64,000 nucleotides of DNA, from the NCBI GenBank assembly GCA_013204385.1, contig JABMNY010000013.1, positions 517 through 64,516 of the forward strand, read 5' to 3'. Positions 17,978 through 55,273 of the stretch are shown here, one piece after another. The notes under the pieces are model-generated. The model was given only the letters and a program-made list of their open reading frames with translations. It did no database searches and was not told the origin of the DNA. The position numbers were made by a program, and so were the translations under genes. The stretch's first letter is position 1. Each line of letters opens with the position of its first letter. This DNA is from Candidatus Uhrbacteria bacterium. GTDB taxonomy: Bacteria; Patescibacteriota; Patescibacteriia; UBA9934; GWF2-40-263.

Positions 17978-18065
17978 GGAGAGGTCGCATAGTGGTCTAG
18001 TGCGCCGCCCTGGAAAGGCGGTACACCGCAAGGTGTCGGAGGTTCGAATCCTCTCCTCTCCTCCA
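17978..18065 (+). tRNA. tRNA-Ser (anticodon GGA), class II with a long variable arm, CCA encoded
   Basis: Cloverleaf folded by hand: acceptor GGAGAGG/CCTCTCC, D-stem GCAT/GTGC, anticodon stem CCGCC/GGCGG with loop CTGGAAA, a 16-nt variable arm, and T-arm GGAGG TTCGAAT CCTCT. Confidence 0.8.
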
Positions 18066-38850: not shown

Positions 38851-40110
38851 ATGTCTAGAGATGAGTTAGAAAAGAAAGAATTTTACGGATTAGGAATTGC
38901 TCCAACACTCTTAGAGCGAATTGAAGCACTTGGATTTAAACATCCGACCCCGATTCAATTTAAAGCCATTCCTATTGCTTGTACCGGAGAAGATGTTGTC
39001 GGAATTGCACAAACAGGAACAGGAAAGACACTCGCGTTCTCTATCCCCATGCTTCAGCAAATGGCTGCTCGTGGGAAGAAAGGTCTCATTTTGCTTCCAA
39101 CACGTGAGCTTGCTATTCAGGTTGAGACCACTCTCGAGAAACTTGCTGGACCTCTTGGGTTGCGTACAGTGCTTCTTATTGGAGGAGTGAATCCAAACCC
39201 ACAGATCAAAAAACTTCGATTAAAACCACATGTCATTATTGCGACCCCAGGGCGACTCATCGACATGATGCAACAAAAGCATGCGAGACTTGATCAGATT
39301 GGGGTACTTGTTCTTGATGAGGCTGATAGAATGCTTGATATGGGGTTTGCTCCACAACTCAAGAAGATTCTTGCAACCGTTCCTTCTGAGCGTCAAACAA
39401 TGCTTTTTTCAGCAACCATGCCAGAGCAAATTGCTTCTATTGCACGTCAATACATGAAGAGTCCATTGCGTGTGGAAGTCGCTCCTGCAGGAACAACCGC
39501 TGAAAGCGTGGAACAAGAGATGTTTATTGTTCCTAAGAACGACAAAACAGAGCTTTTAAAACGCTTGCTCACGGAATATAAAGGAACAATCCTCGTTTTT
39601 TGTCGAACAAAACATGGAGCAAGTAAACTTGCTCGTTCAATTCGAGGAATGGGGCATAGCTCTGCAGAGATTCATTCAAACCGTTCACAGAATCAGCGAC
39701 AAGAAGCACTTCGTGGGTTTACAAATGGAAAGTACCGTGTGATGGTGGCAACGGATATTGCTGCGCGTGGAATTGACGTGAAAAATATTGAGCTCGTTGT
39801 CAATTACGATCTTCCTGATCAACTTGAAGATTATGTTCACCGTATTGGACGAACGGGTCGAGCGGGAAGTACAGGAAAAGCAATTTCGTTTGCAGCTCCT
39901 GAACAAAAAAATGATATTATCCAAATTGAACGTTTGATCAAAGCGACTCTAACGGTAAAAACACCAGAAGGGGAATTGATAGAGCGCAAAGATCGTGCTG
40001 GAAGTGGTGGAGGCTCTCGATCACGCTCAGGTGGCGGAGGTCGTGGTGGACGTAGTGGTGGTGGACGTCCAGGACGTGCACGAACGCGAGGTCCTTCAAA
40101 ACGATATTAA
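38851..40110 (+). CDS. DEAD-box ATP-dependent RNA helicase with a C-terminal RGG/Gly-Arg-rich tail
   Basis: Q motif, GTGKT, DEAD (VLDEADRM), SAT, HRIGRTGRAG, and a tail GSGGGSRSRSGGGGRGGRSGGGRPGRAR. Confidence 0.9.
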   Translation: MSRDELEKKEFYGLGIAPTLLERIEALGFKHPTPIQFKAIPIACTGEDVVGIAQTGTGKTLAFSIPMLQQMAARGKKGLILLPTRELAIQVETTLEKLAGPLGLRTVLLIGGVNPNPQIKKLRLKPHVIIATPGRLIDMMQQKHARLDQIGVLVLDEADRMLDMGFAPQLKKILATVPSERQTMLFSATMPEQIASIARQYMKSPLRVEVAPAGTTAESVEQEMFIVPKNDKTELLKRLLTEYKGTILVFCRTKHGASKLARSIRGMGHSSAEIHSNRSQNQRQEALRGFTNGKYRVMVATDIAARGIDVKNIELVVNYDLPDQLEDYVHRIGRTGRAGSTGKAISFAAPEQKNDIIQIERLIKATLTVKTPEGELIERKDRAGSGGGSRSRSGGGGRGGRSGGGRPGRARTRGPSKRY

Positions 40111-40619: not shown

Positions 40620-41321
40620 ATGAAAACACGACTAAACAAATATTTGGCCGAAAGAGGCATCTGCTCTCGTCGTCAAGCAGATGTCCTTATTGCTGATGGG
40701 GCCGTTCTGGTAAATGGGGAAGTGGCGACTCTCGGACTCCCGGTTGATGAAACAGATGAGATACGAGTTCATGGGGACATGATCAATCGCATGAGACCCA
40801 AAAAAGTGTATCTTGCATTCAATAAACCTGTGGGGATCATGACCTCTGTTGATCCTCATGCTCCTGATACAATACGAACATTTTTAAATCTTCCAAATCA
40901 TATTTTTTCCGTGGGACGACTCGATGTTGCTTCCAGCGGGTTATTAATTTTGACGAACGATGGAGATCTCTCAGAACATATTACACATCCTCGATACGAT
41001 CATGAAAAAGAATATCTTGTTTCTGTTGATCGTCCTGTGCTTCGTGAAGATCTTCGGGAAATGGCAGATGGGATGATGATCTTGGGTTCTATGACAAAAT
41101 CTGCGCAAGTCAAAAAAATTGGAGATCAACGATTTACAATTGTTCTTACAGAGGGAAGAAACAGGCAAATTCGCAGAATGTGCGAGGCCTTAGGGTATGG
41201 CATCACCTCACTTAAACGCATACGAGTCATGAATATTGAGTTGGGAGATCTTCCGATTGGGGAGACACGTCCGCTTACCTCTAAAGAGCTTCATGTGCTC
41301 AGACAGAGTTTAAGTTTGTAG
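40620..41321 (+). CDS. Pseudouridine synthase, RsuA/RluB family (S4 domain plus catalytic domain)
   Basis: S4 domain N-terminus (RLNKYLAERGICSRRQAD) and the catalytic motif GRLDVASSGLLILTNDG. Confidence 0.8.
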   Translation: MKTRLNKYLAERGICSRRQADVLIADGAVLVNGEVATLGLPVDETDEIRVHGDMINRMRPKKVYLAFNKPVGIMTSVDPHAPDTIRTFLNLPNHIFSVGRLDVASSGLLILTNDGDLSEHITHPRYDHEKEYLVSVDRPVLREDLREMADGMMILGSMTKSAQVKKIGDQRFTIVLTEGRNRQIRRMCEALGYGITSLKRIRVMNIELGDLPIGETRPLTSKELHVLRQSLSL

Positions 41322-42080
41322 CCCCGTACGTTTTCGTAAGAGAGCGATGAGGGCAATTCCAAGGACGGAAGTCAGTAAGAACATCGTAATGGCACTCCCG
41401 AGAATGGGAGTACTTGCGTGTCCGGTAAATCCGTATCGAAATCCATCGATTGCATACGCGAGCGGATTAAATCTTGCAATGGTATGCCAAACGCCTGGAA
41501 GATTTGCGATGTCATAAAAGACTCCTCCAAGATAGGTCAGGGGAGTAAGTACAAACGTTGGAACGATTCCCACGTCATCAAACTTGCGAGCAAACATTCC
41601 ATTTAAGAATCCGAGCATGGAGAAAAAGATGGCTGTTACAATACTGAAGTAGATAACTGCCCAAAGATGGGTAATTGTGGACGGAACAAAAAAGAGTGAG
41701 ACAATAAAGACAATCACACCAACAACGAGACTGCGGAAAATTCCTCCTGTACAGAACCCAGCAAGCAAGGTGGAGGGGGAGACAGGGGCAACAAGGATTT
41801 CTTCGATACTTCGTTGAAATTTCGCTCCAAAAAATGAGCTCGCAACATTCGAAAAAGCACTCGTCACAACAGCCATAAGAATAAGTCCTGGAACGATGAA
41901 TCCTGCATAGCTCTGACCTCCTACTTCTCCGATACGAGATCCAAGAAATGCGCCAAAGATCACAAAATACAGGGATTGGGTAATGATCGGAGGAAGGAGT
42001 GTTTGTGTCCAAATGCGCAGAATTCTGGTGACTTCTTTGCGGGCGATGGTGATGTACGCAATGGTAGGGGAGTATGTCAT
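41310..42080 (-). CDS. ABC-2 type transporter permease
   Basis: Six TM helices with ABC-2 topology. Start taken at Met 42080, 13 nt downstream of the ATPase stop. Confidence 0.65.
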   Translation of the reverse strand: MTYSPTIAYITIARKEVTRILRIWTQTLLPPIITQSLYFVIFGAFLGSRIGEVGGQSYAGFIVPGLILMAVVTSAFSNVASSFFGAKFQRSIEEILVAPVSPSTLLAGFCTGGIFRSLVVGVIVFIVSLFFVPSTITHLWAVIYFSIVTAIFFSMLGFLNGMFARKFDDVGIVPTFVLTPLTYLGGVFYDIANLPGVWHTIARFNPLAYAIDGFRYGFTGHASTPILGSAITMFLLTSVLGIALIALLRKRTGLQT

Positions 42081-42093
42081 AGGATTAGACTTG

Positions 42094-42990
42094 TTACATG
42101 GCTGCTTCAATAAAGACCTCCTCAAGACGGTTTGCTTTTGGTCGAATATCACGAATGGTTACTCCATGTGACGCGAAGTCCTGAATCATGGATGTGACAC
42201 TCGTCCCTTGTTTGAGAGACGCTTCCCACGTGGTTGCGTTTTTTTGTTTGAGATTATAGATCCCCCCTTCTGTAAGGAGTTGATCTGTCGTAAGGACAAA
42301 TGATTGTGCGGAGAGTTCGTTAAGGAGCTCTTGGATCGGAGCGTTTCGGACAACCTCACCTTGTCTCATCATCACAATTTGTTCACAGAGTTCCTCTGCT
42401 TCTTCAAGGTAGTGTGTGGTGAGAAGGATGGTCGTCCCTTGCGCATGGATTTTCCGAATGAACTCCCACATCCCCCGACGAAGCTCAACATCAACTCCCG
42501 CAGACGGTTCATCAAGGAGCAATATTTTTGGCTCATGAATGAGTGCGCGCGCGATCATGAGTCGACGTTTCATTCCGCCTGACAGGGTTCGAGCCGTTGC
42601 AGTTCGTTTGTCCCAAAGTCCCAGTTCGTGTAGAAGGTTGTCAGCTCGTTCTCTTGCAGTCTTCCGAGGGACTCCATAGTATCCAGCTTGATCGATTAAA
42701 ATGTCTTCAACCTTTTCAAAGATACTAAAATTGAATTCTTGGGGGACGACACCAATATAGGATCTCGCAAGCTCAGGTTGGTCATCAAGATTAATTCCAG
42801 CAACTAAAATTTGACCACCAGTCTTCCTTACAAGTCCTGTAAGAATTCCAATAAGCGTCGTTTTCCCAGCCCCATTGGCTCCCAAGAGTCCCGTCATGCT
42901 TCCAGCTTTGACTTCAAACGAAACATTCTTAAGTGCTTGAGTTCCTGTTGAATAGGTCTTTTCGACATGTGTGAGGGTGATTGCGTTCAT
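42094..42990 (-). CDS. ABC transporter ATP-binding protein (ABC-2/DrrA-like exporter ATPase)
   Basis: Walker A GANGAGKTT, signature LSGGMKRRL, and Walker B LLLDEPSAGVD. Confidence 0.85.
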   Translation of the reverse strand: MNAITLTHVEKTYSTGTQALKNVSFEVKAGSMTGLLGANGAGKTTLIGILTGLVRKTGGQILVAGINLDDQPELARSYIGVVPQEFNFSIFEKVEDILIDQAGYYGVPRKTARERADNLLHELGLWDKRTATARTLSGGMKRRLMIARALIHEPKILLLDEPSAGVDVELRRGMWEFIRKIHAQGTTILLTTHYLEEAEELCEQIVMMRQGEVVRNAPIQELLNELSAQSFVLTTDQLLTEGGIYNLKQKNATTWEASLKQGTSVTSMIQDFASHGVTIRDIRPKANRLEEVFIEAAM

Positions 42991-43079
42991 AGTGGCGGTA
43001 GTATACAGGATTCTATTTGGTAAAGAAAAAGACCGTGGGTAAGAACCACACGGTCGCGTTTGTGATCAGAGGATCTTGG

Positions 43080-43820
43080 TCACCAGCCTCCGCCAGCTCC
43101 CCCTCCGCCGAAACTCCCTCCGCCGAAACCTCCTCCGCCACTCGAACCAGAGCTTCCACCCCAGTCTGAGGATCCGGAGCTGTAGTTGCCACCACCTCCA
43201 CCCCCTCCGCCTTTGCTCATGACGAGAAGGACAAAAAGGATGATCAGAAAGATGATCAGGATGACCATCGCTTCAGAACTGAGCTGAGCTTCTTGGGTGG
43301 TGTCACCGTTCATCCTGGTTATGTTGGGTGGACTGTAAGGTTCTCCCTTGACCACCTTGATGATGGCGTCCACCCCAGCTTCGATGGCTTCAGGAGGTTT
43401 CCCATCCTTGAAGAGCGGTTCGATGCTCCTTGTGATGATCATCTTGGCTGTGGCGTCTGGGAGAACTCCTTCGACACCATAGCCCGTCGCGATCCAGATC
43501 CTGCGCTCCTTCATGGCGATCAGGAAGACGATGCCATTGTCTTCGCCTTTCTGGCCCACGCCCCACTCCTCGCCGATGTTGGTGGCGAAGGAGGCAGGAG
43601 TTTCGCCATTGAGGGTTTGTACTGTGATGACGGCAAATTGTGCCGTGTTGCCATCTTCTAGAGTCTGGATCTTGCGCTCGAGCGTTGCTTCACGGTCGTC
43701 GGGAATGACATTCGCGAAGTCATGGACGAACTTGCCAGGCTTTGGGCTTGGGTAGGCCTGAGCCTGAGTGCTGAACAAGATGCACATCAGAGCAAGGAGG
43801 AGCAGATGTAGTCTGTTCAT
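43080..43820 (-). CDS. TPM domain protein (YgcG-like) with a signal peptide, a C-terminal TM and a Gly-rich tail; high GC
   Basis: FVHDFANVI...IVFLIAMKERRIWIATGYG TPM pattern. The tail is GGGGGGGGNYSSG...GGGW. Start at Met 43820 has a GGAGG SD and a 4-nt overlap with the upstream stop. Confidence 0.6.
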   Translation of the reverse strand: MNRLHLLLLALMCILFSTQAQAYPSPKPGKFVHDFANVIPDDREATLERKIQTLEDGNTAQFAVITVQTLNGETPASFATNIGEEWGVGQKGEDNGIVFLIAMKERRIWIATGYGVEGVLPDATAKMIITRSIEPLFKDGKPPEAIEAGVDAIIKVVKGEPYSPPNITRMNGDTTQEAQLSSEAMVILIIFLIILFVLLVMSKGGGGGGGGNYSSGSSDWGGSSGSSGGGGFGGGSFGGGGAGGGW

Positions 43821-43821
43821 C

Positions 43822-44304
43822 TCACACCTCCAGAACTGGTCGGTTGGGAAGCTCGTTCGTGTCATCGTGCTTCTTGGGGAAATGCTCGCACAGGCATCTG
43901 CCGATGGCTTCTACGGATTCGCAGATACCTTTGGTTGAATGTCTTTCATGGAACGCAGATGAGAGTTCTATGGCCTGTTGCTCCCAGAAGTTGGGAGGTA
44001 GGAGATTGTTGATGCCCTCGTCCCCCATGATGTAGAAGGCGCGATCAGCGAGCACGATCAAGAGCAGAACGCCGGTTTTGTCCCGAGTGTCATGCATCTT
44101 GTGCTTGAGGAAGTCGGCTTCTGCCTGAGTCTTGACGTCAGGAATGCTGTCGTCGCGACGTGCACGGATGACCACACGGATCTCTCCAGAGGTGGTTTGC
44201 TCGGCCTTGGTGACAGCCACAGTGATCGCGTCGAGGTCCTGCTTGGAGAACATTCGATGCATCCACCAGAGGTCGATCAGTCGTTGAAAGAACTTCATGA
44301 TCAC
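43822..44304 (-). CDS. TPM domain protein (TLP18.3/DUF477-like); high GC
   Basis: GEIRVVIRARRDDS...GVLLLIVLADRAFYIMGDEGI pattern, 160 aa. Confidence 0.55.
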   Translation of the reverse strand: MIMKFFQRLIDLWWMHRMFSKQDLDAITVAVTKAEQTTSGEIRVVIRARRDDSIPDVKTQAEADFLKHKMHDTRDKTGVLLLIVLADRAFYIMGDEGINNLLPPNFWEQQAIELSSAFHERHSTKGICESVEAIGRCLCEHFPKKHDDTNELPNRPVLEV

Positions 44305-44307
44305 TCC

Positions 44308-44907
44308 TTACTCGAAGCTGACGGTCGGAGCCTTGTCGGATCCTTCGTCAGCCTTGAAGTAGGGGTAGGAGCGTTCGAAGTCCATCCCAGCGATTGACAC
44401 GATCATGTTGGTGAAGAACCCCTTGCGAGCCGCGTTGTAGTCCTTCACAGCCTCGTTGTAGCGATGCCGTTCGGTTCCGATACGGTTCTCGGTTCCTTCG
44501 AGCTGGGCCTGCAAGACCAGGAAGTTCTCGTTGGCCTTCAAGTCCGGGTAGGACTCGACGACCGCGAGAAGCTTGCTGAGCGCGCCCGAGAGTTGGCTCT
44601 GAGCGGCCATGTAGCTTGCGATCTGCTCGGAGGTAGCAGAGCTGATGTCGATCTTCACCTTGCCGACCGAGGCACGCGCATCGGTCACTTCGGCGAGAAC
44701 CTTCTCCTCGTGGGAGACATAGCCCTTCACGGTTGATACGAGGTTCGGGATGAGGTCCGCTCGACGCTGGTACTGCGTCTCGACATTTCCCCACTGGCTG
44801 TTGACTCCCTCTTCGTATCCGACGAGAGAGTTGTTCACTCCCGCGAGGCTCAGGACGAAGAGGACAAGCATGCCACCAAGGGCAGCGAGAATAGAGGTTG
44901 CTTTCAC
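44308..44907 (-). CDS. LemA family protein; high GC
   Basis: N-terminal TM, then WGNVETQYQRRADLIPNLVSTVKGY...HE..VLAEVTDAR, which matches the LemA consensus. Confidence 0.8.
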   Translation of the reverse strand: MKATSILAALGGMLVLFVLSLAGVNNSLVGYEEGVNSQWGNVETQYQRRADLIPNLVSTVKGYVSHEEKVLAEVTDARASVGKVKIDISSATSEQIASYMAAQSQLSGALSKLLAVVESYPDLKANENFLVLQAQLEGTENRIGTERHRYNEAVKDYNAARKGFFTNMIVSIAGMDFERSYPYFKADEGSDKAPTVSFE

Positions 44908-45037
44908 GGTTACTCCTTTATCTCGATGGAAGACCCAACGAGGTGAAGAATATACAGCAAATACTTCATTTTGTCAACTCATCCATGTAATTAAAAAATC
45001 ACCTTATTCAGATGATTTTTTAAAGTCGGATGGATGA

Positions 45038-45526
45038 TTATAGATAGGACTCTCTCCGAATACGGTGGCAGGTATATCCTCCAGGGTTCTTCTGGAGAAA
45101 GTCTTGGTGATACTCTTCTGCGGGATAAAATGTTGTAAATGGCTCAAGGCTTGTCACAACTGGTTTTTTCCAATACCCAGATGCATTTACTCGGTCGATC
45201 AATTCTTGAGCTTCACTTTTCTCATCTTCAGTTGAGTAAAAAATAGCTGAGCGATAGGATTCTCCGATATCATTTCCTTGTCGATTTAGCGTGGTTGGGT
45301 CGTGAACACGGAAAAAGAAATCAAGGAGCTGTTTGTATGAGATTGCTTCTGGATCATAGCTAATCTCTACAGCCTCCGCATGTCCAGGATGATTCTCATT
45401 GTCTGGATCCTGGTTTGCACCTCCTGTGTAACCAACTTGAGTGGTGATAACACCTGGGAGCGCACGAACTAATTCTTCGAGCCCCCAGAAACAACCACCT
45501 GCAAAAATAGCGGTCTTCGTTGCCAT
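45038..45526 (-). CDS. msrA: Peptide methionine sulfoxide reductase MsrA
   Basis: GGCFWGLEE active-site motif near the N-terminus. Start at Met 45526 matches the typical MsrA N-terminus. Confidence 0.85.
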   Translation of the reverse strand: MATKTAIFAGGCFWGLEELVRALPGVITTQVGYTGGANQDPDNENHPGHAEAVEISYDPEAISYKQLLDFFFRVHDPTTLNRQGNDIGESYRSAIFYSTEDEKSEAQELIDRVNASGYWKKPVVTSLEPFTTFYPAEEYHQDFLQKNPGGYTCHRIRRESYL

Positions 45527-45530
45527 AATT

Positions 45531-46802
45531 TTAATGTGAATGTTTTTCGAGGTAATTGAAGAGGGTCGGAAAGAGTTTTTGTGTGTCAAAAGAAAGAGCA
45601 ACAGTCTTCAGTCCATTTTTAACAAATGTTTTTCGAATCTTGTCATTTTCAAGAATGGTTGAAATTTTATGAGCGAGTTCACTTGCATCATTGGCTTGAA
45701 CGAGAAAGCCATTATGCTTGTCTGTAATAATTTCAGGGATTCCTCCAACGTTTGTTCCAATAACTGGGAGACCACATGCCATGGCTTCGATAAACACTTG
45801 CCCAAATGTTTCATTTTCAGATGGAAGAGCAAAGACGTCAGATCCCGCATAGACTTCAGGCATTTTTTCCATTGGAAAAGTTTTGATGATGACGAAGTCT
45901 TCAATTCCATGAATTTGTGTGTACCCTTCAAGTTTTTGAAGCGCAGCTTCAAATTCTTGATTGAGACGTTGAGGGGGTTTTCCGACCGCAATAAGAAGAT
46001 AGACATCACTTCGAGTGCTTCGAATTTTAGAAAATGCGTCCAGTAGATTGATCAGTCCCTTTTCTGTAAGGATGTCAGAGTATCCTTGCAAGATGCGTGA
46101 AGCAGAAACAATCACTTTGTCGGACGAGGAAAGACCTAAGTGTTTTTTGAGCCACTTTCTATTTGTTTGAGGAGTAAATTCTTTAATGTTCACCCCAAGA
46201 TACTTGGTCGTGATATGGCTGATCGCAAGCCCTTTTTGAAAACAGTCACCTGCAACACTTTTACTGACACAAAGAACTTTTTTCCAAAAGAGACCATTGA
46301 TGATTTCTGTCTGTAGTGGATTTGTAGAGAAAGAGTGTAATTGCAAAAAGAGAGGAACTTGTTTTGTGTGACAGACCATATTGACCATCAAGCTATAAGA
46401 TGGAGGAAGGCCAAGGTGGAAGTTTTGTGCTGTAACAGCAGAAATAGCATGCTCGGGGATGAAGGTATTAAGGAATTCAAAAAATTCAATAGATTTATCT
46501 TTTACTTGTTTTTGAGATCCTTTTTTTACATCAATTGATTTTCGCTTTTTATACGATAAATTGAGGAATGACTTGAAATGAATTGATACATTTCCTATCT
46601 GAACAATCTCCTCTTTTGTTTTGGAGGGGAGAATAAAATAATAGTTTCCAGGCTGATCTTGGCAAAAATCAATGAGATTTTTTATATATCGTTCAATCCC
46701 TCCTATACTCACAAAAGGAGAGTTTGGACTTATAATGAGATGGTTCATGTTAGAGTGATTTTTTGAATAAGAAAAACGCAACACTCGCTCCAATCCAGTC
46801 AT
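45531..46802 (-). CDS. Glycosyltransferase family 4 (GT-B fold)
   Basis: C-terminal E-x7-E region ETFGQVFIEAMACGLPVIGTNVGGIPEII typical of GT4. Confidence 0.75.
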   Translation of the reverse strand: MTGLERVLRFSYSKNHSNMNHLIISPNSPFVSIGGIERYIKNLIDFCQDQPGNYYFILPSKTKEEIVQIGNVSIHFKSFLNLSYKKRKSIDVKKGSQKQVKDKSIEFFEFLNTFIPEHAISAVTAQNFHLGLPPSYSLMVNMVCHTKQVPLFLQLHSFSTNPLQTEIINGLFWKKVLCVSKSVAGDCFQKGLAISHITTKYLGVNIKEFTPQTNRKWLKKHLGLSSSDKVIVSASRILQGYSDILTEKGLINLLDAFSKIRSTRSDVYLLIAVGKPPQRLNQEFEAALQKLEGYTQIHGIEDFVIIKTFPMEKMPEVYAGSDVFALPSENETFGQVFIEAMACGLPVIGTNVGGIPEIITDKHNGFLVQANDASELAHKISTILENDKIRKTFVKNGLKTVALSFDTQKLFPTLFNYLEKHSH

Positions 46803-47151: not shown

Positions 47152-47217
47152 AATGGGTCAATTTTATCATGAAATGAAAACACCCGTTTAATCGGGTGTT
47201 TTCTGTGTGTTCAATGG

Positions 47218-47907
47218 TTATTCAATATCGGTTGAAGCATCATCATTCCACCCAATTTCTGGAAGATTTTCTGGCTCAACCATTTCTGGTTCGTCGAGCT
47301 CCATTTCCTCCATATCTCCTTCGATCATCTCATCATCTTCTGTTTCGACAATGACGTCATTCAAAATGTTGAGGATTTGATCAAGTTTTTGGTTGATGGA
47401 CATGATCTCAGATTTGAGACTTGGTCCGATAGGAGCTGGTCCTGTTGGTCGGTGGCGTGGTCGGTCTTCAGAGCGATCGTTTGATCCTCCAAAAGAAGGC
47501 TTTCGGTCGAATCGGTCAGATGAACCACCTTCGCTTCCTCGGAAGCATTCTCGACAAAGAACCGGTTTACTTCCATTTGGTTTAAATGGAACGGTACAAG
47601 AGTTTCCACATTCATTACATCGAGCTGGAAAACTTGGCTTATCTCCTCCGAATCCACCACGATTTCCACCAAATGAGCTTCCGCCCCCTCGATTTCCACC
47701 GTATGAACTTCCTCCTCGGCTTCCGCCGAATGAGCTTCCTCCACGACTTCCTCCACCAAATGAGCTTCCTCCACGGCTTCCACCGTATGAACTTCCTCCG
47801 CTGCTTCGTTCTCCTCCACCGTATGAACTTCCTCCACGGCTTCCACCGTATGAACTTCCTCCGCTGCTTCTTCCGCTGTCGTTGTATTCGCGTTTCGCGT
47901 AAGCCAT
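47218..47907 (-). CDS. Low-complexity SYGG/RGG-repeat protein with a Cys zinc ribbon and an acidic C-terminal tail (putative RNA-binding)
   Basis: About 8 copies of SRGGSS[YF]GG, then CNECGNSC-x13-CRECF (CxxC-x17-CxxC), then an EDDEMIEGDMEEMELDEPEMVEPE tail. The underlying DNA is a tandem repeat. Confidence 0.5.
   Translation of the reverse strand: MAYAKREYNDSGRSSGGSSYGGSRGGSSYGGGERSSGGSSYGGSRGGSSFGGGSRGGSSFGGSRGGSSYGGNRGGGSSFGGNRGGFGGDKPSFPARCNECGNSCTVPFKPNGSKPVLCRECFRGSEGGSSDRFDRKPSFGGSNDRSEDRPRHRPTGPAPIGPSLKSEIMSINQKLDQILNILNDVIVETEDDEMIEGDMEEMELDEPEMVEPENLPEIGWNDDASTDIE
47630..47890. repeat. Intragenic tandem repeat array (about 30-33-bp units) encoding the SYGG/RGG repeats
   Basis: Visible recurrence of ccacgacttcctccaccaaatgagcttcctccacggcttccaccgtatgaacttcctcc. 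Confidence 0.55.
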
Positions 47908-47977
47908 AATATTGTTAGGTTTGTAATGGTAACTGCTGAAGACTACTCCCAGAAGCTTATTCTGTCAAGGGGAAAAG

Positions 47978-49768
47978 CTAGAGTTCACAGCGCAGTGTGT
48001 CGATTTGTTCCTGATTTGAAAGCCAGGTTTTTTCTAGAATTTCTAATTGGTCATTCAGTTCCGAGAGTCTCTGCGACTTGGAAGGGGAGTAATCCATAGG
48101 GTTTTCAAAAAAATACCCAAGAATTTCACTCTTTTCCCGGTCTAGGGTTTCCATCTGTTTTGTGGTTCGTTCCTGGGATCTTTGATGCTCTCTTATACGA
48201 GTATGGATTTCTGTTCGATCTTGAATACTTAAGTTGCTCAAGCTTGATTCGTCCTGTTTCTCTGTAAGGGAGTCTTCCATGACTGATGAAAGATCGTCTA
48301 CATACTCCTCATAGGTGCCCATATAACGTCTTACATTTCCGGCACGAACTTCAAAAATTTTGTCGACGAGCGTATTCACGAAGGTTCGTGAGTGAGAAAT
48401 AATAATGACTGTTCCTTTATATTCTTTTAGCGCCACTGCGAGCGCTTCGGTCGTTTCTACATCAAGATGGTTTGTTGGTTCGTCGAGTAATAAAACATTG
48501 TGTTCATGAAGGAGGACGCCTGCGAGACAGAGTCGCGCACGCTCTCCTCCACTTAAGATATTTGCCGCTTTATCAAGATCGTCGCCTCTAAAAAGAAAGT
48601 TCCCTGCCATCATGAGAATGTGTTCACCCGACGCATCTCCTGGCGCCATGCGTGTGAGGTATTGAACGACTGTCTCATTTCCAATTATCGTTGCTTCTGT
48701 TTTTTGGTCATAGTATCCAATATCTACTTTATGCCACCACTTTACCGATCCTGAGAGTGGTTCAATATGCCCCGCAAGTGTTTTCAGGAGCGTAGATTTT
48801 CCTCGACCATTTTCACCAGCAATAACCACTTTTTCCCCACGATGAATTTCAAGATTGATGTCCTGCGCTACAGTAAAATCTCCATATCCGATAGAAAGGT
48901 GTTGTGTTCTGACAGCAGTACCGGCAATAACATGAGGGGAGGGAATGCGAATTTTTGTCGTAGCAAGATCAGAATTGATTTTGGAAATCTTCCCACAGAG
49001 TTTCGCAATATGCTTTATTTTACTTTGTGCGCGAGAGGCCAGACTCGCCTTTGATCGAAACCGGTCAACGAATTCTTGATGATGGGCCATTTCACGTGAA
49101 AGTCTTTTATTGTTCCGTAACTCAAGATCGAGTTGTTCTTGCTTGAATGTTAAATACTCTTCAATTGAGCCTTTGTAGGAAGTAAGAGTTCCTCGTTCGA
49201 TTTCAAATGTGTGTGTGCAGGTATTTTGTAAGAACGTTCGATCATGCGCTGCCAGAAGAAACGCCCCATTAAATCTTTGTAGGAAACGTTCAAGAAAAAG
49301 AAGAGTTTGAAGATCTAGATAATTGACTGGCTCATCTAAAAGGAGAAGATTTGGTTCGAGTAATAGCATGGCGACAAGCTTGACACGCATTTGATAGCCA
49401 CCAGAAAGCTGGTTTGGAATCTGTTCAAGATGGCTAGATTGAAGCCCAAATTCTGAAGCTTGTTTGCGAATCGTCCATTCTTGCTTGCCGCTTTTTTGTT
49501 CAAGGTATTCAAGCGTTGAGATTGAGTCTGGAAGTACCTCATGTTGCTCCACAACTCCCACACGGGCAGTTGGATAAAATTGAACATGACCTCCATCAGC
49601 TTCTTCCTGACTCATGAGAATTTTAAGAAGTGTAGATTTTCCTGCTCCATTTCTTCCAATAAGTGCAATTTTTTGTTTTTCGGTTACAAGAAAAGAAAGA
49701 TCATCCAAGACGACCTGTAATCCATATGATTTTCGAATGTTGCGTCCTTCAGCGAGTGGGTGAGGCAT
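47978..49768 (-). CDS. ABC-F family ATPase (Uup/YheS-like, tandem ABC domains)
   Basis: Two Walker A motifs (GRNGAGKST and GENGRGKST), two signature and Walker B sets, and a C-terminal coiled coil. No TM domain. Confidence 0.85.
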   Translation of the reverse strand: MPHPLAEGRNIRKSYGLQVVLDDLSFLVTEKQKIALIGRNGAGKSTLLKILMSQEEADGGHVQFYPTARVGVVEQHEVLPDSISTLEYLEQKSGKQEWTIRKQASEFGLQSSHLEQIPNQLSGGYQMRVKLVAMLLLEPNLLLLDEPVNYLDLQTLLFLERFLQRFNGAFLLAAHDRTFLQNTCTHTFEIERGTLTSYKGSIEEYLTFKQEQLDLELRNNKRLSREMAHHQEFVDRFRSKASLASRAQSKIKHIAKLCGKISKINSDLATTKIRIPSPHVIAGTAVRTQHLSIGYGDFTVAQDINLEIHRGEKVVIAGENGRGKSTLLKTLAGHIEPLSGSVKWWHKVDIGYYDQKTEATIIGNETVVQYLTRMAPGDASGEHILMMAGNFLFRGDDLDKAANILSGGERARLCLAGVLLHEHNVLLLDEPTNHLDVETTEALAVALKEYKGTVIIISHSRTFVNTLVDKIFEVRAGNVRRYMGTYEEYVDDLSSVMEDSLTEKQDESSLSNLSIQDRTEIHTRIREHQRSQERTTKQMETLDREKSEILGYFFENPMDYSPSKSQRLSELNDQLEILEKTWLSNQEQIDTLRCEL

Positions 49769-55075: not shown

Positions 55076-55273
55076 TTAAGCGCGCTGTACATTTGTTGCA
55101 CGAGGTCCCTTTTCAGAGTCTTCTGTTTCAAATGTTACTGCGTCACCTTCACGAAGTTCATCGAATGATACATCGACGAGTTCAGATGAGTGGAAGAACA
55201 AGTCCTTCTCCTCACCTTCTACAGCGATGAATCCAAATCCCTTATCTGTCAACCGTTTGATAATACCGGTCAT
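55076..55273 (-). CDS. cspA: Cold-shock protein (CspA family)
   Basis: GFGFI RNP1 motif (KGFGFIAV) and FFHSS RNP2-like, 65 aa. Confidence 0.9.
   Translation of the reverse strand: MTGIIKRLTDKGFGFIAVEGEEKDLFFHSSELVDVSFDELREGDAVTFETEDSEKGPRATNVQRA

Follow-up and report, generated by a model that had tools for sequence, protein, structure and literature searches.

Gene and protein at the locus

The DNA analysed here, referred to throughout as the window, is a stretch of 64,000 nucleotides (nt) from contig JABMNY010000013.1 (positions 517 to 64,516) of assembly GCA_013204385.1, a Candidatus Uhrbacteria bacterium. The subject of the analysis is a single gene on its minus strand, whose product joins a glycine-, serine- and arginine-rich repeat arm to a small zinc finger, a helix and an acidic tail. 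The list of open reading frames (ORFs) and an exact database match agree on a complete gene encoding NQV90059.1, hypothetical protein HQ487_01475 of a Candidatus Uhrbacteria metagenome-assembled genome, and the identical protein is also encoded on a 67-kb JGI contig; the source metagenome is JGI 3300032736. A preliminary description of the locus had presented the product as a FUS-like low-complexity protein. The features of the gene and of its flanks are as follows, with confidence in the structural model given as the predicted local distance difference test score (pLDDT).

47218..47907, minus strand: complete coding sequence, ATG start, 229 amino acids (aa) plus stop (stop codon 47218-47220)
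47644..47877, minus strand: low-complexity arm of eight [S/N]RGG(S)S[YF]GG units, aa 11-88 (Tandem Repeats Finder and unit analysis)
47539..47634, minus strand: CxxC-x17-CxxC zinc finger, aa 92-123, TIGR04272 / PF23477 zf_Tbcl_2 (hmmscan)
47425..47538, minus strand: disordered linker rich in R, D, S, G and P, aa 124-161 (alignment; AlphaFold2)
47335..47424, minus strand: conserved amphipathic helix, aa 162-191, LKSEIMSINQKLDQILNILNDV... (AlphaFold2, block-mean pLDDT up to 95)
47221..47334, minus strand: acidic tail, aa 192-229, low-confidence and non-helical in the AlphaFold2 model
47176..47203, no strand assigned: hairpin with an 11-bp stem and a 6-nt loop, GC-containing, 15 nt past the stop codon and followed by a T-rich run on the minus strand
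47940..47968, minus strand: putative weak promoter read from the sequence, TTGACA, 17 nt, TAGTCT, with a poor -10 element

The ORF is a genuine gene under selection. In a comparison with five same-clade relatives over two ungapped conserved blocks (47 codons), 22-28 codon changes were synonymous and 2-3 non-synonymous; because synonymous changes far outnumber non-synonymous ones in these blocks, the frame is conserved and has been under strong purifying selection. Loss of the frame in relatives, against which the preliminary description had cautioned, is therefore not what is observed.

Other ORFs overlap the gene between 47361 and 47909 in other frames and on the opposite strand: a 169-aa proline-rich 'PPxELPP' frame at 47393-47902 (+), a 161-aa frame at 47361-47846 (-) and a 107-aa frame at 47586-47909 (+). 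All three arise from the tandem repeat and are not genes.

The zinc finger

The window protein belongs to the TIGR04272 / PF23477 family, a family that domain databases already list. Residues 92-123 match TIGR04272 (NCBIfam name 'cxxc_cxxc_Mbark') with 49.4 bits against a curated cutoff of 36 (E 2.7e-13), and PF23477, labelled 'probable treble clef zinc finger' by Pfam, with 48.8 bits against a curated cutoff of 27 (E 5.8e-13). The cysteine module that the preliminary description had read as CNECGNSC-x13-CRECF is present exactly in that form, with cysteines at C97, C100, C104, C118 and C121, and its expected assignment to a known zinc-finger type was borne out by these two above-cutoff matches to a treble-clef-type family. 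The predicted zinc ligands are C97, C100, C118 and C121: C97-N-E-C100 is followed by 17 residues (GNSCTVPFKPNGSKPVL) and then by C118-R-E-C121, and the VPF-P ... KPV core is present.

Both CxxC pairs and the core columns are invariant in a 52-sequence alignment. Within the finger P107, F108, P110 and P115 are invariant, and G101, C104, V106, G112, V116 and F122 nearly so. The AlphaFold2 model built from this alignment gives the finger a pLDDT of about 90, with a beta-hairpin (93-96/103-106) and a helix (119-125). The model contains no metal and places the CxxC pairs on the hairpin and at the N-terminus of the helix, a predicted hairpin-plus-helix layout that would be treble-clef-like. Of the residues predicted to be exposed, F108 and F122 are invariant or nearly invariant, while positions 109 and 114 are mostly basic; by analogy, the conserved exposed set F108, K109, K114 and F122 may resemble base-stacking zinc knuckles.

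Family membership makes the finger of the window protein a candidate zinc-binding module. Zinc binding has been demonstrated by inductively coupled plasma mass spectrometry for two Methanosarcina mazei proteins with this domain, A00184 and A01980 (PMC12704099); in the searchable literature this report is the sole experimental datum on the domain, and no function was assigned.

Searches of the PDB with the full protein and with a finger-only profile returned only spurious matches (PRDM9 C2H2 linkers matching 'GSKPVLCRECFRG', and the tail of S26e), and a Foldseek search of the AlphaFold2 model against the PDB gave a best E of 1.5 (ZitP, YacG and small ribosomal zinc proteins), which is not usable. 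A Pfam scan of the window protein at E<=1 found only PF23477 and a sub-threshold ZZ match. The C4 finger of DksA has the same CxxC-x17-CxxC spacing; the DksA/TraR finger was considered as a candidate and rejected, as there is no PF01258 match at E<=1 despite the equal spacing.

The repeat arm

The arm consists of eight units which are, in order, 12, 9, 12, 9, 10, 9, 10 and 7 aa long (SGRSSGGSSYGG, SRGGSSYGG, GERSSGGSSYGG, SRGGSSFGG, GSRGGSSFGG, SRGGSSYGG, NRGGGSSFGG and NRGGFGG), in keeping with the roughly eight SRGGSS[YF]GG repeats that the preliminary description had attributed to tandem DNA repeats. All eight units terminate in [YF]GG and carry one Arg apiece, with Tyr or Phe at aa 20, 29, 41, 50, 60, 69, 79 and 86 and Arg at aa 13, 24, 34, 45, 55, 64, 73 and 83, a regular spacing of 7-12 residues. 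In composition the arm is 45% G, 29% S, 10% R and 10% Y+F, with no Gln; six RGG tripeptides are present, and each of the eight Arg residues has GG within the next 1-4 residues. Its net charge is +7, and residues 1-84 are predicted by AlphaFold2 to be disordered (pLDDT <50). At the DNA level the repeats are imperfect, with units of 27, 30 and 36 nt; the length of every unit is divisible by 3 nt, and a 63-nt super-unit (units 1+2, units 3+4) is duplicated. Over 47665-47874 Tandem Repeats Finder detects repeats with periods of 27, 30 and 63 nt and 75-83% matches; the best score (249) belongs to the 63-nt period (3 copies, 83% matches).

The N-terminal arm measures 96 aa in the window protein against 31-58 aa (about 4-5 units) in close relatives, whose arms follow the form GNRRxGNSYGGGRGxFGGNRGGFGGG. 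Among 200 members sampled from the family described below, the window protein is the richest in S[YF]GG units, with eight against four in the next best, and SRGGSSFGG-type units recur independently elsewhere in the family (e.g. P0033, P0045 and P0090). Since the arms of relatives are shorter and hold fewer S[YF]GG units while the motif itself is family-typical, sequence comparison marks the eight-unit repeat as an expansion of that motif, in tandem and in frame, that is specific to this lineage. Arm length is clearly labile in evolution between species. The length variability suggested in the preliminary description is thus found among related species; at the level of strains, metagenome contigs were scanned with degenerate codons for variants of the same species that differ in repeat number, and the scan recovered only other species of the clade and no second intact array.

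Tandem arrays invite the suspicion that the assembly has collapsed, expanded or joined repeats wrongly and that the ORF is spurious or the repeat non-coding, a concern also raised in the preliminary description. Logan contigs from SRR28106091 and SRR28106031 start inside the array and match the window with 100% identity from unit 3/4 up to and including the terminator. On a third Logan contig, of the same run, the upstream ABC-F gene is followed by the first 67 nt of the window gene, and the contig ends in unit 1. The contigs break at a shared k-mer, AAGTTCATACGGTGGAA, as is to be expected when a de Bruijn assembler meets a genuine repeat within a sequence. In this way independent data confirm the two flanks and units 4-8, while the number of 63-nt super-units (two) comes from the window assembly alone, as the Logan assemblies break inside the array. 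The breaks in two Logan assemblies, this super-unit number and the spurious ORFs that the repeats yield in other frames are what an artefact would have in its favour. Against it, the flanks and units 4-8 are identical in both runs, every unit preserves the frame, the imperfection of the units (75-83% matches) speaks against a simple collapse, and the same architecture occurs in thousands of relatives under purifying selection. We consider an artefact very improbable; the repeat itself is real.

On three Logan contigs of the same organism (L096, L097 and L099), gene calling yielded a product cut short at 61 aa (P0246) and, overlapping it, a fragment of 143 aa that runs in from the contig end.

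Linker, helix and acidic tail

The linker following the finger carries a conserved FDRKPSFGG stretch and, directly before the helix, GPAP[IV]GPS; its residues 128-148 have pLDDT <50. The helix at 162-191 comprises the conserved amphipathic segment and the first acidic residues. Its hydrophobic residues follow a/d heptad spacing over three heptads, with additional hydrophobic residues at e/g positions, and in the window protein the motif reads I168-S-I-N-Q-K-L-D-Q-I-L178. K174 is invariant and N172 at least 90% conserved in alignment A1. Family-wide, the polar residues N172, K174 and D176 hardly vary (N 82%, K 100% and D 90% of 303 members, the value for K being partly fixed by the [KR] anchor that served to position the helix).

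Residues 187-229 are 46% D+E, with a net charge of -20, and bring the whole protein to a net charge of -10. The preliminary description had proposed a strongly acidic helical C-terminus; the acidity holds, while in the AlphaFold2 model the tail is mostly non-helical and the confident helix (162-191) precedes most of it. The tail contains a Trp in an acidic context (EIGWNDD) and terminates in STDIE-COOH. When the window protein and its 16 closest relatives are considered, a [DEN]IE C-terminus is present in 15 of the 17 clade sequences, and the upstream aromatic in its acidic context occurs as [WF]EE in most of them and as GWNDD in the window protein.

Acidic C-terminal tails also occur in other nucleic-acid-binding proteins, such as bacterial SSB, whose tip recruits partners, and HMGB1. 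The tail of the window protein resembles them in its disorder and in its conserved hydrophobic and acidic tip ([DE]-I-E-COOH with [WF]EE upstream); it differs in that the window protein has no OB fold or HMG box and that the tail is lysine-rich instead in most of the family. On this likeness one could regard the protein not as a nucleic-acid binder but as a protein-interaction hub, or a chaperone for basic proteins, in which the helix and the [WF]EE ... [DE]IE tip would serve as short partner-recruiting motifs like the SSB tip. The glycine-rich arm would then act as an entropic spacer, or protect against stress as a hydrophilin. The recurrence of the [DEN]IE end and of the upstream aromatic shows that the tail is non-random, and the N-K-D polar signature of the helix is conserved beyond the needs of a generic coiled coil. 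However, the tail motifs cannot define the function of the family, because most of the family has a lysine-rich tail in their place with arm, finger and helix kept, and a passive spacer would not be expected to conserve the periodic Arg and aromatic residues seen in the arm. We regard such a hub as improbable.

A large family in Patescibacteria

A full-length search (8,000 candidates scored) found 245 proteins at E<=1e-3; PF23477 is present in all 120 among the matches listed, and the taxonomically labelled relatives are mostly Patescibacteria, with single entries from Bacillota and Nitrosopumilaceae. A phmmer search of 1.84 billion representatives with aa 90-229, a query that leaves out the repeat region, returned 3,126 clusters (50% identity) at E<=1e-3 and 706 at E<=1e-10. 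The best 150 of these hits are 61-339 aa long and hold one to five finger-matching stretches each. Relatives are encoded by at least 577 species-level genomes, nearly all of them Patescibacteria (Saccharibacteria, Uhrbacteria, Falkowbacteria, Dojkabacteria, Microgenomates, Paceibacteria, Magasanikbacteria, Peregrinibacteria and Kerfeldbacteria), with a few from Margulisiibacteriota, Elusimicrobia-type and archaeal genomes.

Most members begin with a G/R-rich arm and continue with one or two fingers (a few have as many as five stretches that match the finger); a disordered linker then leads to a short helix, and the protein ends in a charged tail. In the 200 sampled members the N-terminal arm has a median length of 52 aa and a median net charge of +6, and the helix motif is found in 184. 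The subfamily that we define in this work has three features, all present in the window protein: the arm (aa 11-88), the finger (aa 92-123) and a helix motif of the form phi-x-x-phi-N-x-K-L-D-x-I-L. Close relatives (60-73% identity) match its finger, linker and helix almost residue for residue. Missing from the preliminary description was this broader setting: the window protein belongs to a very large family of Patescibacteria whose architecture is fixed and whose members are mostly net basic.

While arm, finger and helix are constant, the tails in the family are of two kinds, either acidic (net about -10 to -30), as in the Uhrbacteria clade to which the window protein belongs, or lysine-rich with AKK-type repeats and histone-H1-like. 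Of the 200 sampled members 162 are net basic and 34 net negative. These tails raise the possibility of a nucleoid-associated, histone-like chromatin protein, in which finger and RGG arm would contact DNA and the tail, lysine-rich in most members, would condense it, the acidic-tail subfamily then being a regulated or antagonistic variant. Such a role fits the many members that end in AKK/KKxAxKK repeats like the tails of histone H1 or of bacterial Hc1- or AlgP-type proteins, the basic net charge of most members and the occasional RecQ and GIY-YIG genes nearby. It fits poorly with the window protein and its whole clade, which are strongly acidic-tailed and net negative, with the classical RNA-binding role of RGG/GAR (glycine-arginine-rich) arms, and with neighbouring genes that are equally often RNA-related (RluA/RluB, DEAD-box, cold-shock domain (CSD), GreA and ABC-F). 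A nucleoid role is possible, though rather unlikely.

A finger-only profile finds mainly stand-alone proteins from archaea (DPANN, Thermoplasmata, Bathyarchaeota and Micrarchaeota). They are 44-74 aa long and have the form RGGF..REMHKAxCxxCGxECEVPFKPxxxxPVYCxxCFxKxRRF, with basic tails of the KRRRF/KHKKY type. The M. mazei and other archaeal stand-alone proteins share the same finger module with the window protein, the four Cys and the VPF-P...KPV core being identical in pattern; whereas the archaeal proteins consist of the finger and short basic ends, in the Patescibacteria form the finger is accompanied by a long RGG arm, the conserved helix and the charged tail. Neither the finger-only profile search nor the phmmer search with aa 90-229 revealed an informative fusion of the finger to an enzyme or helicase. 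The exception among fusions is a pair of proteins of 135-140 aa, P0119 and P0120, in which PF13451 (zf-trcl, putative zinc-binding) is joined to PF23477 via an S-Y-G-G-rich spacer. Because both proteins carry the two elements, the combination of a Tyr/Gly/Ser spacer and the finger recurs in a second architecture.

Two kinds of database label within the family deserve comment. Tiny homologues of 45-73 aa (P0128, P0140, P0141, P0144, P0146, P0151, P0168, P0180 and P0235) are labelled 'DNA-directed RNA polymerase' by their sources, which looks like a propagated annotation; nothing found here backs the name. The M. mazei paper mentions one such RNA polymerase annotation (PMC12704099). Many records with typical Patescibacteria-type members are titled 'uncultured Gammaproteobacteria bacterium' (L010, L012, L021 and others). 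The L010 protein belongs to the Uhrbacteria-type clade, with 69% identity to the window protein over the aligned segment, and these labels look unreliable.

Genomic neighbourhood

The window gene stands alone, separated by a 70-nt gap from the ABC-F gene at 47978-49768. The hairpin downstream is likely an intrinsic terminator between the window gene and the DUF2238 gene, being a consensus match of a kind for which the chance expectation in the scan is about equal, and it is 100% conserved in the independent Logan contigs. Upstream of the gene the promoter scan made no call and no clear Shine-Dalgarno sequence was seen; the weak promoter listed above is a putative element.

The order ABC-F, window gene and DUF2238 is kept in Uhrbacteria relatives, where a gene for an RluA-type pseudouridine synthase and the DEAD-box helicase gene follow directly, only two genes from the zinc-finger gene. 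The helicase gene in the window (38851-40110, +) encodes the DEAD and Helicase_C domains, and its product ends in what the preliminary description had called an RGG tail; this tail is G/R-rich (...GSGGGSRSRSGGGGRGGRSGGGRPGRARTRGPSKRY; ...RKDRAGSGGGSRSRSGGGGRGGRSGGGRPGRARTRGPSKRY). We also surveyed 80 diverse genome loci of the family by neighbourhood clustering. The counts of neighbours per 80 loci are as follows.

Generic ABC exporter: 14
Flavoprotein: 8
RecQ: 5
RluB-type pseudouridine synthase: 4
GreA: 3
Cold-shock protein: 3
GIY-YIG: 3

A CSD gene is the immediate neighbour in 3 of the 80 loci, and in two loci (L007 and L008), both for the single distant homologue P0061, it lies immediately downstream.

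In the Uhrbacteria clade, the position of the gene directly downstream of an ABC-F gene of translation-factor type and near rRNA-modifying and helicase genes would fit a factor associated with the ribosome or translation: an assembly or hibernation factor, or a lineage-specific ribosomal protein, whose helix and tail would dock on ribosomal components. The archaeal stand-alone homologues do resemble small basic zinc-binding ribosomal proteins, and archaeal and eukaryotic small ribosomal zinc proteins are among the weak Foldseek and profile matches. All of these structural and profile matches are non-significant (E>=1), however, the ABC-F synteny is limited to close relatives, and the number of fingers and the charge of the tail vary far beyond what is usual in ribosomal proteins. 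An association of this kind seems quite unlikely.

Resemblance to known RNA-binding proteins

Like the eukaryotic FET proteins (FUS, EWSR1 and TAF15), the window protein has Gly/Ser/Tyr-rich and RGG low-complexity sequence flanking a C4 zinc finger, with RGG boxes present. Aromatic and Arg residues act as 'stickers' in low-complexity domains, and the regularly spaced aromatic and Arg residues of the arm could act in the same way. The differences are considerable. The Pfam scan at E<=1 revealed several FET features to be lacking in the window protein: no RNA recognition motif (RRM), no RanBP2-type finger and no proline-tyrosine nuclear localisation signal (PY-NLS); no FUS or RanBP2-finger chain appeared in PDB sequence, profile or fold searches. 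The prion-like domain of FET proteins is rich in S, Y, G and Q and uncharged, whereas the arm of the window protein has no Gln and one Arg per unit. The finger is of a different family, with its hairpin-plus-helix predicted fold, and the valence of the arm is about eight Tyr/Phe and eight Arg against dozens in FUS. Because RRM, RanBP2 finger, Q-rich Arg-free prion-like domain and any FET match in the PDB are all lacking, the resemblance to FUS is only convergent, an analogy and not membership; of the likeness proposed in the preliminary description, the RGG/GAR-like composition of Tyr/Phe, Arg and Gly/Ser stands and the homology does not.

Plant zinc-finger glycine-rich RNA-binding proteins (CSDP / RZ-1) are another point of comparison, as glycine-rich and RGG stretches are interspersed in them with small zinc fingers, a layout mimicked by family members with two to five fingers and G/R-rich linkers. 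These plant proteins are reported to act as RNA chaperones (e.g. PMC1802614 and PMC3134357). The plant proteins differ in possessing a CSD or RRM and CCHC knuckles and in lacking the conserved C-terminal helix and the charged tail; no CSD, RRM or zf-CCHC match was found in the window protein by the Pfam scan at E<=1. In close relatives the arm includes a classic GAR sequence (GGGRGGFGGGNRGGFGGG) like that of the nucleolar proteins fibrillarin, nucleolin and GAR1, and nucleolin also pairs acidic stretches with its GAR domain. The window protein, which is bacterial, has none of the methyltransferase, RRM or H/ACA domains of these proteins, and we know of no arginine-methylation system associated with it. 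By analogy of function, the window protein would most resemble RGG/GAR plus zinc-finger RNA-binding proteins, the plant chaperones being as near an analogue as FUS.

A putative nucleic-acid-binding role

We favour the interpretation that the window protein is a multivalent nucleic-acid binder or chaperone, acting probably on RNA, and would place its probability at roughly 0.55. RGG/GAR-type sequence binds RNA with low specificity and makes Arg-aromatic contacts. In the mechanism we propose, the Arg/aromatic arm and the basic, aromatic-bearing finger would bind nucleic acid with low sequence specificity, most likely single-stranded or structured RNA. The helix would drive self-association or dock on a partner; in the former case the valence, modest with its eight aromatic and eight Arg stickers, would be multiplied. 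As for the acidic tail, it might either cover the basic arm of its own chain or attract a partner via its conserved tip. Taken together, these activities would amount to an RNA chaperone or to a scaffold for RNA-protein assemblies. An RNA-chaperone or condensate role, and a tail folding back on the arm, had been put forward in the preliminary description; from the sequence both are plausible.

Among the hints of nucleic-acid binding in the family we count the basic ends of the archaeal finger proteins, the AKK-repeat tails and the basic net charge of 162 of the 200 sampled members. The context adds a stand-alone gene with a terminator hairpin, the ABC-F, RluA-type and DEAD-box neighbours of the Uhrbacteria clade and the CSD genes next to a few homologues.

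Several observations weigh against this interpretation. The net charge of -10, owing to the tail, is unusual for a nucleic-acid binder. The survey of 80 diverse loci found no conserved operon partner and the RNA-related neighbours each recur in just 3-5 of them, and because partners are not conserved and RNA-related neighbours few, the genomic context lends only a faint flavour of RNA metabolism. Since no solved structure is related to the protein by sequence, profile or fold, no function can be transferred from the fold, and a search of the literature by domain names and by Patescibacteria together with RGG found no experimentally characterised member of the bacterial family. A preference for RNA over DNA, or the reverse, is undecidable from sequence. 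Condensate formation by the arm alone is doubtful, because its Tyr/Arg valence (8+8) lies far below that of FUS-type proteins.

In a bolder version the whole family would serve Patescibacteria as their general RNA chaperone, or as the scaffold of their ribonucleoprotein condensates, and would be a bacterial equivalent, reached by convergence, of the eukaryotic GAR/FET proteins. Oligomerisation through the helix would then supply the missing valence, and the switch between acidic and lysine-rich tails would tune self-coacervation against nucleic-acid binding. With its expanded Tyr/Arg repeat and long acidic tail, the window protein would be an extreme block-polyampholyte prone to self-coacervation. 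We offer this version tentatively and think it unlikely.

The gene as such is ordinary: the domain family has been catalogued and the gene was already deposited as encoding a hypothetical protein. What is new is an unusually repeat-expanded member; the family-wide architecture in Patescibacteria has received too little attention and lends itself to experiment. Little is known about RNA-handling and chromatin proteins in Patescibacteria, a vast and for the most part uncultured radiation whose genomes are reduced. The family unites a low-complexity arm of eukaryote-like RGG/aromatic character with a zinc finger and a helix of the oligomerisation type. If its members do bind RNA or form assemblies, they would provide a compact, tractable bacterial model for RGG/zinc-finger proteins and a candidate global RNA chaperone or nucleoid protein for Patescibacteria. 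Genetic methods exist for Southlakia epibionticum (PMC10633639); in the transposon-sequencing (Tn-seq) supplement for this organism no entry is labelled CxxC, in a search by label in which the homologue was not mapped by sequence.

Other features of the window

A whole-window Rfam scan gave no match near the window gene; its sole match at the gathering threshold is a single tRNA at 17978-18062 (+). A separate 65-aa CSD protein is encoded at 55076-55273 (-), about 7 kb from the zinc-finger gene. In the window, the DUF2238 gene is separated from the pseudouridine synthase and helicase pair by a block of about 5.4 kb (41310-46748), which encodes a GT4 glycosyltransferase, MsrA/PMSR, LemA, a TPM-domain protein and an ABC-2 transporter pair. 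The block is absent at that position in the syntenic relatives L002-L004, and represents either an insertion in the window or a deletion in these relatives.

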